A DNA stretch of 64,000 nucleotides, from positions 1 to 64,000 of the IMG/VR virus record IMGVR_UViG_3300014039_000541. One strand, given 5' to 3'. Shown in pieces: positions 7,204 to 36,849 of this stretch. Below the pieces are notes generated by a model that was given only the letters and a program-made list of their open reading frames with translations, made no database searches and was not told the DNA's origin. Numbering within the stretch: position 1 is the stretch's first letter; the number at the start of each line of letters is the position of its first letter. Source of the stretch: a virus. Lineage: Duplodnaviria > Caudoviricetes. The position numbers were made by a program, and so were the translations under genes.

Positions 7204-8145
7204 TTAATAAAATGTTCCGTTTACATTAACTGACATATCATCGATGTTTATAGATACATATTCTTTCCAAGGACAAATCTTATTTGTTATTTCTTCAGGA
7301 ATACCTGAATTTTTAAATATATGATATAAATCCATTTGAGGACCATAATCAGAATATAATTTCCTAATATTCATATGTGTTTTATTTCTTCTAATTTTAT
7401 TAAATCTATTTTTGCCAGAAATATTATGACTATTTGGATTATTAAGAAATTTCTTTGTTTTACGAGGATACTTTCCTTTTTTAAATATATATGAAAGATA
7501 ATCATTATTATAACCAAAATATCGTGGAAACATAAGGCATCTCATTGTTTCCTTATAGAACAATTTCTTTTGAGAAACACTTACTTTATACATATATTTC
7601 TGTTTAAGATATGATCCTAATGCTTGACACATCAATGTTTGATCATTATGATATGACGTCCTCATACTTTGATATTCTTCATTGAATACATCTTTATAAA
7701 GCATATCAGCAGCAATTTTACATGCATCATATAACGTATGAATTGGTTGATGTTGCTCTTTATAATACTTTATTACATCATTAAACCAATCTTTTACACA
7801 ATATTTAGGTGCAATAACATGTTTATCTTTTAAATAATCTGAATACTTATCATACATGATTTTATTATAATCAGAAAAACCATAATACCATGCCATAAAT
7901 TGATCGAATTTTAAATTACTATCAATATCTTTTTTACTTAAAATACCGGTATCTATATCATCTTCCCTAATTATAAAATCAATATGTGAAACATTTTTAT
8001 TAATAAAATCAGTTAAAATATTATTTAATATATTAGCTGATTTAGAATTCATACATAACTCTATTAGTTCTATAACTTTATCTTTAGATAAATTATAACC
8101 ATATAATGGTTCTGGAAAACTATTAATTATTTCTTCTTTTGACAT
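7204..8145 (-). CDS. Hypothetical protein
   Basis: 313-aa ORF, no recognised motif. Confidence 0.7.
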   Translation of the reverse strand: MSKEEIINSFPEPLYGYNLSKDKVIELIELCMNSKSANILNNILTDFINKNVSHIDFIIREDDIDTGILSKKDIDSNLKFDQFMAWYYGFSDYNKIMYDKYSDYLKDKHVIAPKYCVKDWFNDVIKYYKEQHQPIHTLYDACKIAADMLYKDVFNEEYQSMRTSYHNDQTLMCQALGSYLKQKYMYKVSVSQKKLFYKETMRCLMFPRYFGYNNDYLSYIFKKGKYPRKTKKFLNNPNSHNISGKNRFNKIRRNKTHMNIRKLYSDYGPQMDLYHIFKNSGIPEEITNKICPWKEYVSINIDDMSVNVNGTFY

Positions 8146-32331: not shown

Positions 32332-33318
32332 ATGGAAAATACATCAACGAATACAAGTAATAATACTCAACATGTAACGCAGAAATTGTTTACAGAAATG
32401 TTGAGACCACAAACATTGGATCAAGCAATTATAGTTCCGAGAATTAGAGAGGTTCTTCAACACGGGTTGACAACTAATATTTTACTTTCCGGTTCCGCTG
32501 GTGCTGGTAAAACTTCCCTAACTCGCATCTTAACTCGCGGATACCAAGTTCTTGAAATTAATGCATCTCTTGAAAATGGTATTGATACCATTAGAGATAA
32601 AGTTATTGCATTTGCATCTCAGTCATCTCTTTTTGATGGTGAGGAAAAACTTAAGGTTGTTGTTCTTGAAGAGTGCGATGGTCTTTCTCTTGAAGCTTGG
32701 AAAGCTCTTCGTGCAACAATTGAAAAATATCATAAAACTGTTAGGTTTATTGCAAACTGTAATTATATCGATAAGGTACCAGAACCTATTCAATCAAGAT
32801 TTAATGTTATTATAATTGATCCACTTACAAAAGAAGAAGAAGATTATCTATTTAACGGTTATCTTGAGAGAATTAAATATATTCTTACAAAATTTAGAAT
32901 TCAATTTACAGAAGAAACAGTAACATCATTTGTAAGAAGTTCATTCCCTGATATGCGTTCACTTCTTAATAAGATCCAAAATCTTTATACAAGAGGATTA
33001 AAAGAATTATCAGTTGATATGCTTGCATCTTCTTATGATTGTTCAGAGTTGTTTAAGCTTATAATTGATAAACCGGATCCTGTAAACAATTATAAGAAAC
33101 TTGTTGCAGATTGGTCAACACGCTCAGATGATGCAGTTCTTGCAATAGGTAAGGATTTTCCTGATTTCATATTGACAACATGTCCACAATATGGTTCAAA
33201 ACTTCCACTTATTCTTATAGCAACAGCAGAATATAATTCTATGCTTGCAACATCAATAGATAAGTTTGTGACATTGCTTGGACTTGTATTTAAATTGCAG
33301 TTAATTATACATCAATAA
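32332..33318 (+). CDS. Clamp loader AAA+ subunit (T4 gp44/RFC-like)
   Basis: LRPQTLD, Walker A GSAGAGKTS, EINAS, Walker B VVLEECDGL, IQSRF and FPDMR motifs. Confidence 0.93.
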   Translation: MENTSTNTSNNTQHVTQKLFTEMLRPQTLDQAIIVPRIREVLQHGLTTNILLSGSAGAGKTSLTRILTRGYQVLEINASLENGIDTIRDKVIAFASQSSLFDGEEKLKVVVLEECDGLSLEAWKALRATIEKYHKTVRFIANCNYIDKVPEPIQSRFNVIIIDPLTKEEEDYLFNGYLERIKYILTKFRIQFTEETVTSFVRSSFPDMRSLLNKIQNLYTRGLKELSVDMLASSYDCSELFKLIIDKPDPVNNYKKLVADWSTRSDDAVLAIGKDFPDFILTTCPQYGSKLPLILIATAEYNSMLATSIDKFVTLLGLVFKLQLIIHQ

Positions 33319-33394
33319 TTTTTAGAATATAAAATAAAAATGTATCTTTGTATTATTAGTTTTATATGAAGATACATTTTTAATTTATAAATAT

Positions 33395-33595
33395 ATGGCA
33401 ACAAATAGTAGTGAAATTCTTACATTTCCTTTTAAGGTAAAGAAGAAATCAGGTAAACCATTTAAATCAATGTTAAAAATAAATACAGCAGTAGGAACAG
33501 TTAAAAATGAAAATGATCCTAATAAAAAAGATGCATTTATTTTTAAAGAAGATAATTCTGTTGTGAATGTAGATATGTGTGAAATTATTATGTAA
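33395..33595 (+). CDS. Small hypothetical protein
   Basis: 66 aa, KVKKKSGKPFKS; preceded by TATCTTTG at 33343-33350. Confidence 0.6.
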   Translation: MATNSSEILTFPFKVKKKSGKPFKSMLKINTAVGTVKNENDPNKKDAFIFKEDNSVVNVDMCEIIM

Positions 33596-33614
33596 TAATA
33601 AATTATTAAAAAGT

Positions 33615-33642
33615 AGACTAACTATTAATATATAAGTATAAT
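33615..33642 (+). promoter_or_regulatory. Candidate phage promoter AGACT-N17-TATAAT
   Basis: Recurrent motif upstream of the Hc1-like gene and the tRNA. Confidence 0.5.
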
Positions 33643-33708
33643 ATATAAATTATAGTGAATATTTCATTATAAATAAATCATAAAACAAAAATTTAATTTA
33701 GAAAAAAG

Positions 33709-33888
33709 ATGAACGATATTTTGACAAGTATTAATGAGGCATTCGCTGGTTTCCAGGCAGATGCAACCGCTCAGGTAGAGAAGGGTAATAAGGCTGCAGG
33801 TCAGCGTGCACGTAAGGCATCTCTTGCAATTGAGAAGTTGCTTAAGACATTCCGTAAGGAGTCTATCGAGGCTGCTAAGACAAAGTGA
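33709..33888 (+). CDS. Histone H1-like nucleoid protein (Hc1 family, Bacteroidota type), 59 aa
   Basis: MNDILTSINEAFAGFQADATAQVEKGNKAAGQRARKASLAIEKLLKTFRKESIEAAKTK; below the ORF-track cutoff; TGA stop. Confidence 0.85.
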   Translation: MNDILTSINEAFAGFQADATAQVEKGNKAAGQRARKASLAIEKLLKTFRKESIEAAKTK

Positions 33889-33963
33889 TAATTAACATTG
33901 TTTAACTTAATAAAGAATTATCTTTACATTATTTAATTAGAAGTAAAGATAATTTTATTATAT

Positions 33964-34035
33964 GCATGATTAGCTAAGTGGTACAGCAGGAAACTTTAAA
34001 CTTCCAGATCACGGGTTCGATCCCTGTATCATGCA
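33964..34035 (+). tRNA. tRNA with UUA anticodon (ochre suppressor type); amino acid identity uncertain
   Basis: Acceptor GCATGAT/ATCATGC, D arm GCT-AAGTGGTAC-AGC, anticodon arm GGAAA-CTTTAAA-CTTCC (TTA at 33996-33998, A31-C39 mismatch), T arm ACGGG-TTCGATC-CCTGT, discriminator A, no encoded CCA. Confidence 0.85.
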
Positions 34036-34065
34036 CATCTAAATTTAAAATAAAAGTATAAAACT

Positions 34066-34110
34066 ATGGAACTTCAACATTGGTAAGTTACATGTGATCG
34101 TGGACCTTAA
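34066..34110 (+). other. Candidate leader ORF MELQHW(TAA)VTCDRGP(TAA)
   Basis: A-rich AAAACTATG start context, in-frame TAA at 34084, Arg-Gly-Pro-stop end; relatively GC-rich stretch in an AT-rich spacer. Confidence 0.45.
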
Positions 34111-34181
34111 TTTTTGTATATTTTAATTTTATATATTAATCATAAAACTATTATTAAACAAAATTAAAACTATACAAAATT

Positions 34182-34565
34182 ATGAAAACACAAAAAGAAA
34201 ATGTAATAAGATTTAAGAATTATCTTAAGAAAAGAATATCAGAAAGAAAACAACTTAAATTAATAGCGAACAAATCATCAAAAGATAAAGATTATAATTG
34301 GATTAAATCTAGTCATGCTAAATCAGAATTAGAAGAAACATTAGAAGATATACATGCACTGTATATTGCATATTATATTGTAAAACATGATTTAATTAGT
34401 CAAGAAAAAGAACTTGATTATATGATAGAATGTTCAAAAACATTTAAGAAACATTATACTGTATATACAACGAAACAATGTTTTTTATCACAATATGGAT
34501 ATGTAAACAAGAAAATAAATGAATATCTAAATAAGTTTGGTTATGAAAGTGAATTTATTAAGTAA
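34182..34565 (+). CDS. Hypothetical basic protein
   Basis: 127 aa, LYIAYYIVKH motif; overlaps the next gene. Confidence 0.65.
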   Translation: MKTQKENVIRFKNYLKKRISERKQLKLIANKSSKDKDYNWIKSSHAKSELEETLEDIHALYIAYYIVKHDLISQEKELDYMIECSKTFKKHYTVYTTKQCFLSQYGYVNKKINEYLNKFGYESEFIK

Positions 34566-34920
34566 ATTAAAAATATTTACTAATAAACATAAAGTTATTA
34601 ATTTTAAATTAGAAACAAATAATAAACTTTATATATTAGTAAGTAATCAATTGAATCCTATATATGGAGCAGTTCAAGGAGGTCATGCAATAGCACAGTT
34701 TTTAATTGAGCATCCTAATTCTGAATGGAAAAATAATACTGTTGTTTATCTTTCATGTGATATAGATAATTTTTTAAATAGACAAAAGAAACGTAATCAA
34801 TTATTAAAAGATGAATTACATAGTGTATTTAAGGAACCAGATTTAAATAATCAAATAACAGCAATAGCATGTTATAAGATACCTCAAAAATATGTAAAGA
34901 ATTTGAAGTTGTTGAGATAA
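34537..34920 (+). CDS. Peptidyl-tRNA hydrolase (Pth2-like) protein
   Basis: KLYILV..QL.PIYGAVQGGHAIAQF ... FKEPDLNNQITAIAC ... LKLL, matching the Pth2 pattern 'aaQ..HA ... D ... T.ia'. Confidence 0.7.
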   Translation: MVMKVNLLSKLKIFTNKHKVINFKLETNNKLYILVSNQLNPIYGAVQGGHAIAQFLIEHPNSEWKNNTVVYLSCDIDNFLNRQKKRNQLLKDELHSVFKEPDLNNQITAIACYKIPQKYVKNLKLLR

Positions 34921-34932
34921 TAAACAATATAT

Positions 34933-34973
34933 AGAGATAATAGATAAGTAAAAATATTCTATTATCTCTTTTT
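34933..34973 (+). terminator. Rho-independent terminator
   Basis: AGAGATAATAGA...TCTATTATCTCT followed by a T-run. Confidence 0.7.
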
Positions 34974-35019
34974 ATTTAAATAGAAATAAATAATTAAACT
35001 ATTAATAGTATTTTTAATT

Positions 35020-36117
35020 ATGAAATTAGTTAACGAGAAAATAGGATATGTGGATGAAAAGCAGTTTAAACTTTCAACTGTAGTGAATGCGATGGTTGAA
35101 TTTTTAACATCTCCTGATATTCATTGGGATTCTAATTATGAAGTTAAAGGAAAGCCTAATGTAAAGGATATAGATGGATTTGGTTATCATACTTTTACAT
35201 TTGATTTAGATAATAATAAATTAGGATTTATAAAAATTATTATTGTTAATATAGACAAAGATAAAGTAAAGTCTACATATAAATTCCAAGGATTTTTAGA
35301 CGATGAAGAAACAGCTTTTTATTCACCTGTTGATTCTACTGTAGATAAGAAGAAAAATAATTGTGGATATATCTATATTAATTATGATATATTTAAAGAA
35401 TATATTTCAGATAAACAGAAATTAACAGATGAATTAAAGGAATATACATATCATGAGTTAAGACATTATTATGATAATATAATGGGCGTATTCGGTGGAC
35501 CATTGAAAGAACTTATACATATTACATTGATAGCTGATGAATTTGATATTAATAAACAAACATTCAAGGAGAAGAATAAAGAAGCATTAACTAAACATGA
35601 TACAACATATAAGTCATTGCAGAATCTTCTTTATGTTTCACAACCAACTGAATTAAATGCTTGGTATCATTCATTCGTTCAACATATGATGGTATATCAG
35701 AAGAAGAATCCAAATGCAACAAAAGATGATATTATAAATTATATTACAAAACCTGAATTAAACGGTAATGATTATGCATGTTTCATTTACAGTTATGCTA
35801 TTGTATATAAGACATTCGGTAATTATGCTAAAGCTATAAACGGTTTGTGTTCACAAGATCCTGTTAAGTTGTATTATTATATAATTAATACATTGAATGA
35901 ATGTCAACCATCTGATAAGACTATTAAACAGATGAATGATTTATTTGAGAAGAATTATATTGATTATTTCACAGATACTGTTGATTATAAAACATTCGGT
36001 ATAAAGTTAAGTGCATTCATTAATGATTATTACATGCATTATGTGTATAAGAAAATTGCGCCTAAGTATTTACATACATATAAGAATATGCAGAAGTTTA
36101 TTTCTACACTTGTTTAA
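35020..36117 (+). CDS. HEXXH zinc-metallopeptidase-like protein
   Basis: YHELRHYYD plus a downstream PTELNAW as candidate third ligand. Confidence 0.55.
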   Translation: MKLVNEKIGYVDEKQFKLSTVVNAMVEFLTSPDIHWDSNYEVKGKPNVKDIDGFGYHTFTFDLDNNKLGFIKIIIVNIDKDKVKSTYKFQGFLDDEETAFYSPVDSTVDKKKNNCGYIYINYDIFKEYISDKQKLTDELKEYTYHELRHYYDNIMGVFGGPLKELIHITLIADEFDINKQTFKEKNKEALTKHDTTYKSLQNLLYVSQPTELNAWYHSFVQHMMVYQKKNPNATKDDIINYITKPELNGNDYACFIYSYAIVYKTFGNYAKAINGLCSQDPVKLYYYIINTLNECQPSDKTIKQMNDLFEKNYIDYFTDTVDYKTFGIKLSAFINDYYMHYVYKKIAPKYLHTYKNMQKFISTLV

Positions 36118-36138: not shown

Positions 36139-36849
36139 ATGAAAGCAAAAGATATAGCAAGTTAGTTAGGAAGTTTGGCAGCTGCAGCTTCGTCACAACC
36201 AGGAAATTACGATGCTAATGATATAGATACAGATATTCCTGACGAACTTCAAGAGCCGGATCCGATATTCGTTGTTGAGCATGAAGAGGTAATGTCTACA
36301 GATACAGCAAAAGCATTAAAATCCGTTAAGTAGATTGTTAATACCATTGTACCTGAAGCATATCAAAATAACCCTATTATAAAAGATAAAATATTACAGG
36401 ATGCAGATTAGTTAGGACAACTTTATTATCAATAGAGTATGAACAATGTTATGATAAAGGTAATTATGGATACTATATCTAAAGGAGATACATCCGCAAA
36501 ATTATTTGATTCATATACAAAGTTAATGTCTATCGCGAAGGATTTCAATAAGTAGATTAATGAGATGCAGAATCAATTCAGAAAATATTATATTGATACT
36601 TATCTTGATCTTCAACATAAGGAAGATGAAGATCTTATTGCAGAAGATAATGGAGTTAATAGGAAAGCTGTAACGACTTCAAAAGAAGAGCCATAGCAAG
36701 TTACATATGAAGAAGTAAAAGAGTCTCATACAGGAGACAATATGGACTTACGAGAGACTTCTACACGTGATACAACAATAAAGGTATAGGATTGGAAAAA
36801 AGAAATATATAAAAAGAGATTTGAAGAAAGTAAAAAAGCAGAAGAATAA
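36139..36849 (+). CDS. Hypothetical helical protein, 236 aa, TAG=Gln (absent from ORF track)
   Basis: ATG 36139, seven in-frame TAG, TAA 36847-36849. Confidence 0.7.

Follow-up and report, generated by a model that had tools for sequence, protein, structure and literature searches.

Why would a phage whose main stop codon is TAA keep a tRNA whose anticodon matches that very codon? The question is raised by a tRNA gene with a UUA anticodon, here called tRNA(UUA), in the first 64 kb (64,000 nucleotides, the window) of the virus record IMGVR_UViG_3300014039_000541, a single contig of 107,373 bp that CheckV rates as ~20% complete. ARAGORN reported this gene (tRNA-Stop, anticodon tta) as the sole tRNA of the window. 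The Rfam tRNA model RF00005 matched 33964-34035 (59.5 bits, gathering score 29; E = 2.4e-10); it was covered end to end (model positions 1-71 of 71) and was the only Rfam match within the window. The gene comprises 73 nucleotides (nt) including A73 and C74, and CCA is not encoded.

ARAGORN drew a cloverleaf with stems of 7, 4, 5 and 5 bp. In the Rfam alignment the anticodon loop reads C32-U33-U34-U35-A36-A37-A38, and two pairs are marked as non-standard, A13·C22 and A31·C39. U33, a purine at position 37, the T-loop GGTTCGAT and the D-loop AGTGGTA (with G18-G19) are all present, and the acceptor stem begins with G1-C72, C2-G71 and A3-U70, with A73 as discriminator. By its 5'-UUA-3' anticodon the tRNA is a putative ochre suppressor. 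An earlier reading made from the letters alone (the sequence-only reading) had described an intact cloverleaf with the loop CT-TTA-AA and an A31-C39 mismatch and had named ARAGORN as a check; ARAGORN returned a tRNA(tta), and both programs agreed with this description. Sigma-70 promoters around the gene were at chance level (14 found against 13.7 expected), and a terminator scan around it found 0.

A 3.9-kb stretch around tRNA(UUA) matched six phage records and no others, namely those of the Prevotella megaphages Lak-C1, A2 and A1, at ~80% DNA identity. On the strength of this identity, the window is assigned to a Lak-like megaphage of roughly 540 kb, of which it is a fragment. The traits of a Lak-type genome (~26% GC, recoded TAG and homology to the Lak references) were all found: GC content was 22-32% in the window and 25.8% over the contig, and open reading frames (ORFs) of at least 150 aa covered 30,306 nt under the standard code compared to 56,352 nt with TAG as a sense codon. 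Reading TGA as sense gave almost no gain in coverage. Frames of 1828, 1409 and 1302 aa at 36-64 kb are open only if TAG is sense. The record is classed as a provirus in IMG/VR, and no bacterial flank was seen in it; Lak phages have been described as non-integrating (Crisci et al. 2021, PMC8346664). The provirus label is probably an artefact of the fragment.

Genes were called as ORFs of at least 100 aa with TAA and TGA as stops and greedy removal of overlaps. TAA ended 80 of the 88 genes called in the contig and TGA the other 8; the TAA counts were 45/50 for TAG-free genes and 30/32 for genes with at least two TAG codons. In Lak-A1, TAA terminated 422 of 474 called genes. That TAA is the main stop codon, as the sequence-only reading had held, was therefore evident in both genomes.

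Employing ARAGORN, we found a syntenic tRNA(tta) in Lak-C1, A2 and A1. The same tRNA was present in three IMG/VR Lak contigs, located with a pattern that left the entire anticodon loop free, in one further viral contig, also in synteny, and in 6 of the 21 metagenome loci that were reached via the clamp-loader gene. Thirteen copies were aligned; L069 was omitted because it lies on the same contig as L036. The anticodon UUA and both mismatches, A13·C22 and A31·C39, were kept in 13/13 copies, and mean column identity was 98%. The loop signatures named above were likewise invariant in all 13, one T-loop column excepted. The sequence-only reading had proposed that TTT or CTA at the anticodon in relatives would speak against an ochre suppressor; every copy carried TTA.

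The alignment held 5 distinct sequences, in which standard pairs made up 89.5% of the pair cells. In the copy of the window, the acceptor pairs 3-70, 4-69 and 5-68 were exchanged on both sides, a compensatory pattern that 4 of 500 shuffles reached; the three exchanges may be a single event. The Lak-A1 copy was 89% identical to that of the window and had the same flanking genes, as expected of an orthologue, and those of A2 and C1 were likewise 89% identical and syntenic. By comparison, the flanks were ~80% identical or lower, and the downstream spacer was barely alignable. Four runs, all with DNA contigs of relatives and all from one study, were listed for 33000-35000, with no RNA run among them. 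Contigs from 3 of these metagenome runs spanned the gene; among the differences listed for them, none fell in 33929-34038 and at least 40 fell in the flanks. Judged from these alignments, the cloverleaf of tRNA(UUA) is under purifying selection, and tRNA(UUA) is a conserved single-copy gene of Lak-type Prevotella megaphages.

No tRNA(UUA) was found at the remaining 15 of the 21 clamp-loader loci. Ten of these had a clamp-loader identity of 78% or less, and none of the ten had a tRNA in the flank, several flanks being so short that they are not evidence of absence. Four other tRNA-less loci belonged to close relatives with almost no downstream sequence or a partial match only. In the close relative L074 (clamp loader 90% identical), ARAGORN found no tRNA despite 4 kb of downstream sequence. 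In L069, the distance from the clamp loader to the tRNA was 2.6 kb and not 0.65 kb. The missing tRNA of L074 and the shifted one of L069 mark the spacer region as plastic, so far as these sequences go.

If TAA were read as an amino acid, in-frame TAA codons should be visible in alignments between related phages. We translated the 88 contig genes with TAG as Gln and compared them to Lak-A1 with tblastn, which gave 67 high-scoring segment pairs and 25,236 aligned codon pairs. TAA occurred twice inside these alignments, both times opposite query residue 16 or 17, and both cases look like start miscalls; no credible in-frame TAA was present among the 25,236 codons aligned to Lak-A1. A code with TAA as a sense codon was rejected on this result and on the use of TAA as terminator in 80/88 genes.

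Four gene pairs in the 107-kb contig lie in the same frame and are split by a single TAA (at 7204, 22415, 84051 and 100939). Such arrangements were not enriched. Same-frame neighbours made up 127/399 of the co-directional pairs in Lak-A1 and 20/73 of those in the contig, chance being one third, and there was no excess over one third among Lak-A1 neighbours with short spacers (50/179). The sequence-only reading had offered regulated readthrough as one role of the tRNA; with no conserved in-frame TAA and no same-frame excess, this proposal found no support. Its two other proposals, disruption of host termination and support of UAG decoding, are possible roles. Neither TAA recoding nor selection for read-through fusions is indicated by these data, in agreement with Crisci et al. 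(2021, PMC8346664), who reported no evidence of TAA recoding in Lak.

TAG gave a different picture. When TAG codons were compared with their non-TAG partners in the alignments to Lak-A1 (n = 249, both directions), the partner was Gln in 133 cases, Lys in 25, Asn in 20 and Glu in 18. An additional reading of TAG as Lys found no support: among non-Gln partners, the Lys share was 25/116 for TAG and 58/307 for CAA/CAG (Fisher p = 0.58). With Gln as the partner in 133/249 cases and a Lys share like that of CAA/CAG, TAG therefore behaves as a Gln codon without extra Lys signal. In TAG-using genes, TAG accounted for 48% (319/667) of Gln-type codons in the contig and for 42% in Lak-A1, at a density of 16-19 per 1000 codons. 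The 32 TAG-using genes of the contig contained 319 TAG, 317 CAA and 31 CAG, compared to 248 CAA and 93 CAG in the 50 TAG-free genes. CAG is depleted in the TAG-using genes, and it looks as if TAG stands largely in place of CAG.

A tRNA with the matching anticodon is encoded outside the window. ARAGORN placed a second tRNA of the contig, with anticodon cta, at 101731-101803 (+), so the absence of a CUA tRNA that the sequence-only reading had implied does not hold for the contig. For comparison with host tRNAs we used a stand-in host, a named Prevotellaceae isolate genome reached via the Hc1 gene next to tRNA(UUA), in which ARAGORN identified 42 distinct tRNAs. The CUA tRNA has the acceptor of the host and phage tRNA-Gln (U1-A72, G2, G3, A73) and is closest to tRNA-Gln(CUG) of the stand-in host, at 69% identity. 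Its gene lies directly 3' of a gene with 8 in-frame TAG codons. The contig and Lak-A1 copies differ by two compensatory changes in the anticodon stem. With compensatory changes in both, the CUA and UUA tRNAs both look like working genes at the level of sequence. Lak-A1 and one complete IMG/VR Lak genome each encode two CUA tRNAs and one UUA tRNA. The predicted tRNAs of Lak-A1 include several oddities. Some have long introns, U1 and U72 are mismatched in the second CUA tRNA, and a predicted 'tRNA-Lys(ttt)' of 73 nt has A at loop position 33.

Based on a comparison with 35 predicted tRNAs of Lak-A1 and the 42 of the stand-in host, no clear parent of tRNA(UUA) was found. The best host matches were tRNA-Lys(UUU) (66%), tRNA-Gly(CCC) (65%) and tRNA-Lys(CUU) (64%), and the best match in Lak-A1 besides its own orthologue was at 64%. 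A suppressor derived from tRNA-Gln was tried and rejected, the acceptor being G1-C72, C2-G71, A3-U70 (or U3-A70) instead of the U1-A72, G2-C71, G3-C70 of tRNA-Gln, a difference already pointed out in the sequence-only reading; tRNA-Gln was not among the 8 best stand-in-host matches. The same reading had placed the loop one base from that of tRNA-Lys, and host tRNA-Lys(UUU) does have CUUUUAA where tRNA(UUA) has CUUUAAA, a difference at position 36. A73 and this loop would fit a Lys-derived suppressor, but overall identity to tRNA-Lys (64-66%) does not exceed that to tRNA-Gly (65%). The unusual D-arm of tRNA(UUA) was also present in phage tRNAs for Arg, Met, Gln, Lys and Ile in viral contigs, and being shared by five isotypes it is not diagnostic of parentage.

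U35 is a central identity element for both glutaminyl-tRNA synthetase (GlnRS) and lysyl-tRNA synthetase (LysRS), and because of these identity rules Lys or Gln is the likely charge of tRNA(UUA). As far as sequence features indicate, Gln is disfavoured by the acceptor stem, and the codon-partner test speaks weakly against Lys being inserted at TAG to any large extent.

The existence of such a tRNA in Lak phages is already published. Crisci et al. (2021, iScience, PMC8346664) found a TAA-matching suppressor tRNA in 51/51 Lak genomes and one or two TAG-decoding suppressor tRNAs in 38/51 high-quality Lak genomes. Devoto et al. (2019, PMC6784885) mentioned 'multiple types of suppressor tRNAs' in Lak, and their preprint (10.1101/356790) called the relevance of the non-CTA Sup tRNAs uncertain; TAA suppressors were also tabulated by Borges et al. 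(preprint 10.1101/2021.08.26.457843, legend of Fig. 2C). The Lak 'TTA suppressor' of Crisci et al. and Devoto et al. corresponds to that of the window in gene, phage group, anticodon and position, and both groups of authors stated that TAA appears not to be recoded; the difference from the Lak-A1, A2 and C1 copies lies in the exchanged pairs of the acceptor stem. As to function, the accessible parts of the Crisci, Devoto and Borges texts propose none for the TAA-matching tRNA of Lak, and our literature search on ochre-suppressor or TTA-anticodon phage tRNAs found no paper that discusses their role.

The tRNA resembles several known systems and departs from each. Like the classical ochre suppressors of bacteria, it has the body of a normal elongator tRNA with UUA as its anticodon. 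In Escherichia coli, these suppressors arose from tRNA-Gln (supB), tRNA-Lys (supG/supL) and tRNA-Tyr (supC), and by their example tRNA(UUA) would be expected to decode UAA, and UAG through wobble, with modest efficiency. They are laboratory point mutants of cellular tRNAs, whereas tRNA(UUA) is a wild-type gene of a phage lineage without a recognisable parent, its best matches being the tRNA-Lys of the stand-in host (66%) and the CUA tRNA of the phage itself (64%); it also lacks the long variable arm of the Tyr-derived suppressor. The CUA tRNAs of TAG-recoded phages (Lak, crAss-like and others) are likewise stop-matching phage tRNAs linked to an early/late code switch. However, the CUA tRNA of the contig is of Gln type and matches the recoded codon, and tRNA(UUA) matches the one that still serves as main stop. 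Some ciliates in which UAR (UAA and UAG) encodes Gln possess tRNA-Gln(UUA) together with tRNA-Gln(CUA). The pair of anticodons is the same in the contig, but UAA is a sense codon in these ciliates and here the terminator of ~90% of genes.

In Lak-A1, T occupied position +4 after TAA in 51% of TAG-free and 62% of TAG-using genes, compared to 31-47% at positions +5 to +12. The stand-in host sample used for stop codons comprised 399 kb with 285 called genes, 185 of them ending in TAA. Upon read-through of TAA, genes would be lengthened by 5 codons (median) in Lak-A1 and by 16 in the stand-in host (Mann-Whitney p = 7e-14), and extensions of at least 30 codons made up 12% and 35%, respectively. The phage genes are thus far less exposed to read-through than genes of a likely host family.

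A class-I release factor of the RF2 type is encoded in Lak-A1 (378 aa, with GGQ, TAG-free; L160 823-1959, at 368-369 kb of the record). Its gene needs no frameshift. The recognition loop is of RF2 type and reads S-P-Y, the usual RF2 loop being S-P-F. No RF-1/RF-2 domain was found in the 107-kb contig, which at ~20% of a genome is uninformative on the phage as a whole. RF2 is encoded by all complete Lak genomes (Devoto et al. 2019, PMC6784885).

The features of the locus are listed in Table 1.

Table 1. Coordinates of tRNA(UUA) and the surrounding features in the 64-kb window.
Feature	Position	Strand	Basis
tRNA gene, anticodon UUA	33964..34036	+	ARAGORN; Rfam RF00005; conserved in 13/13 homologous copies
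Anticodon TTA (tRNA positions 34-36)	33996..33998	+	ARAGORN, gene position 33; column invariant in 13/13
Clamp-loader ATPase gene, TAG-free	32332..33318	+	phrog_168, E = 4.6e-50; PF00004, E = 5e-9
Gene for Hc1-type histone-like protein, 59 aa	33709..33888	+	PF07432, E = 2e-22; syntenic in 10/10 relatives
AT-rich inverted repeat, perfect 12 bp, 15-nt loop	33916..33954	+	Sequence
Gene for 127-aa protein, no family	34182..34565	+	ORF, tblastn; first gene downstream of the tRNA
Gene for protein of predicted Pth2/Bit1 fold	34537..34920	+	phrog_3668 'hydrolase', E = 1.1e-8; AlphaFold2 and Foldseek
Gene for 365-aa protein, last TAG-free gene of the block	35020..36117	+	ORF
First TAG-containing gene on the strand, 7 in-frame TAG	36139..36849	+	ORFs with TAG = Q

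The order of genes, from the clamp loader through a small ORF, the Hc1 gene, the tRNA, the 127-aa gene and the Pth2-fold gene to the 365-aa gene, was the same in 10/10 relatives checked for the genes downstream of the tRNA. All genes from the clamp loader to the 365-aa gene are TAG-free, and the tRNA locus stands at the end of a TAG-free replication block; the shift to TAG-using genes occurs ~2.1 kb downstream of the tRNA on the same strand. Pfam and PHROG scans recognised no defence or anti-defence gene next to the tRNA.

The Hc1 gene lies directly upstream of tRNA(UUA) and ends with a double stop, TGA-TAA. Relatives of its product (45-73% identity) were found at 35 loci in genomes of Bacteroidales and other Bacteroidota, mostly Bacteroidales (Dysgonomonas, Alistipes, Bacteroides and Prevotella), which suggests that the phage gene was captured from the host lineage. 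The inverted repeat between the two genes ends 9 nt 5' of the tRNA, and a T-rich run follows the hairpin. In 7 relatives, each arm differs at two positions, and complementary changes in the two arms preserve the pairing. The hairpin could terminate the Hc1 gene, or it could be a signal for processing or regulation.

Downstream, the first protein diverges rapidly (52-54% identity to Lak relatives), and Pfam, PHROG and ESM Atlas gave no lead for it. A conserved 28-nt block, ATGGAACTTCAACATTGGTAAGTTACAT, is located at 34067-34094 (3511-3538 in L003) and differs from its Lak-A1 counterpart by a single A/G exchange. A mini-ORF of 6 codons with TGG-TAA at its end could be read from it. The block lies 30 nt past the tRNA in the window, with an insertion of ~135 nt between the two in Lak-A1 and the other relatives.

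The second gene downstream has an ORF of 127 aa, and its homologues have 125 aa; translation probably starts some codons into the ORF. An AlphaFold2 model based on a 38-sequence alignment (mean predicted local distance difference test score, pLDDT, 82.9) was compared to the PDB using Foldseek, which gave 12 matches at E of 0.001 or less. The best 10 of the 12 were all of the Pth2 family, with template-modelling scores of 0.50-0.63 and entries such as 2zv3, 3erj, 1wn2, 1q7s and 1xty among them. Sequence identity in the structural alignments to PDB entries was 14-21%, and there was no Pfam match at E of 0.01 or less and no sequence match in the PDB. Invariant columns were Y43, G44, Q47, G48, G49, H50, E100, P101 and D102 (Y-G-x-x-Q-G-G-H ... 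E-P-D). By the model, the product has a Pth2 fold, which is a predicted fold and not an assignment of activity. Homologues occur on many contigs of 300-550 kb. The 365-aa protein that follows is 82-84% identical in the relatives and gave no family in Pfam or PHROG and no ESM Atlas lead.

What, then, might tRNA(UUA) do? By the wobble rules, a U34-U35-A36 anticodon pairs with UAA and UAG. Together with the analogy to classical suppressors, these rules lead us to favour, tentatively and at somewhat less than even chance, a role as an auxiliary wobble decoder of UAG whose activity on UAA is contained. The tRNA would add UAG-decoding capacity where UAG makes up 42-48% of the Gln-type codons. Its unavoidable activity on UAA would be held low by the RF2-like factor of the phage, which would read UAA and UGA and not UAG; the T that often follows TAA (UAAU contexts) would limit suppression further, and very short AT-rich 3' extensions would make the remaining read-through harmless. 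The conserved A31·C39 mismatch possibly weakens the tRNA as well. Several points weigh against this role as UAG decoder. In split codon boxes, tRNAs with U34 classically prefer A to G in the third codon position, and UAA should therefore suffer no less than UAG. Yet TAA is not avoided in late genes, as 30/32 TAG-using genes end with it. Enrichment of T at +4 is usual in bacteria that have no suppressor. Signs of protection at phage stops were weak: tandem in-frame stops followed TAA in 57 of 379 genes, compared to 36-50 in offset controls, and TGA back-up stops were not enriched. The extra UAG capacity may not be needed, because two CUA tRNAs are already encoded in both complete Lak genomes examined. 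That a TAA-matching tRNA is present in 51/51 Lak genomes and a CUA tRNA was detected in 38/51 fits the role, but the other 13 may be detection failures, because Lak tRNAs carry introns. Finally, if tRNA(UUA) inserted Lys, TAG sites should tolerate Lys, and no excess of Lys was seen.

An ochre suppressor aimed deliberately at the host is, in our estimate, unlikely, though it deserves a hearing. Read-through of UAA, the commonest stop of the host, would damage host proteins and load the rescue systems of the cell, the AT-rich phage would tolerate it, and the Pth2-fold enzyme and the phage RF2 would limit damage on the phage side. The TAA ends of 185/285 stand-in-host genes, with their longer extensions, fit this explanation, as do the universality of the TAA-matching tRNA in Lak (51/51; Crisci et al. 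2021, PMC8346664) and the position of the Pth2-fold gene two genes downstream in 10/10 relatives checked; disruption of bacterial translation was named by Crisci et al. as a possible reason for recoding generally (PMC8346664). However, 89-91% of the genes of the phage itself end with TAA, early and late alike, and are without enriched TGA back-up stops, and the conserved A31·C39 pair would point, if anything, to a weak tRNA. The same mismatch, together with A13·C22, enters differently into a role outside decoding, since two strictly conserved mismatches are unusual for a working decoder. As a decoy or a substitute, the tRNA could counter host defences that target tRNAs, namely anticodon nucleases directed at U-rich loops such as that of tRNA-Lys; it could also bind a release factor, synthetase or modification enzyme, or could yield regulatory fragments. 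Its loop equals that of the stand-in-host tRNA-Lys(UUU) except for position 36, TAA has no sense use, and the Devoto preprint calls the relevance of non-CUA Sup tRNAs 'uncertain' (10.1101/356790). We nevertheless consider a non-decoding role improbable: the entire cloverleaf is kept, including the compensated acceptor stem and the T-loop, as charging and use on the ribosome require, and no defence or anti-defence genes were recognised among the neighbours.

Programmed read-through of particular phage TAA codons, by which a few proteins would gain fused isoforms or ones with a longer C-terminus, could be imagined at the four same-frame pairs with a single TAA between them. It is made very improbable by the frequency of same-frame neighbours (127/399 and 20/73, where one third is expected), by Lak-A1 alignments that never cross a TAA inside a gene, and by the lack of evidence for TAA recoding stated by Crisci et al. 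(PMC8346664). Hardly any credence is left for TAA being in the course of reassignment (UAR = Gln) or for the gene being a decaying relic. The set of UUA and CUA tRNAs is that of ciliates with UAR = Gln, but TAA ends 80/88 genes and no credible internal TAA was present in 25,236 codons; a relic is at odds with 98% column identity, compensatory changes and presence in 13/13 copies. A bolder proposal, which we rate as rather unlikely, is that the Lak code switch centres on the universally kept tRNA(UUA) instead of the CUA tRNA, and that tRNA(UUA) forms with the RF2-like factor a two-part system of stop-codon competition. The tRNA would open both UAG and UAA, RF2 would close UAA again, perhaps less well for the host, and the adjoining Pth2-fold enzyme would clear peptidyl-tRNA debris.

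As the observation of the tRNA is published, the window contributes detail only. It adds the structural selection on the tRNA, the two conserved A·C mismatches and the fixed neighbourhood with a Pth2-fold gene; it further adds quantitative evidence against a sense use of TAA and the comparison of read-through exposure between the phage and a likely host family. A tRNA kept throughout a lineage against the lineage's own main stop codon raises the question of how termination and decoding are balanced while the code changes in mid-infection. Should tRNA(UUA) be the main or ancestral decoder of UAG, the view of code switching in phages would change. If the system of stop-codon competition were real, Lak phages would be a living intermediate between TAG-only and UAR = Gln codes, and a case of a virus that retains a tRNA reading its own main terminator.

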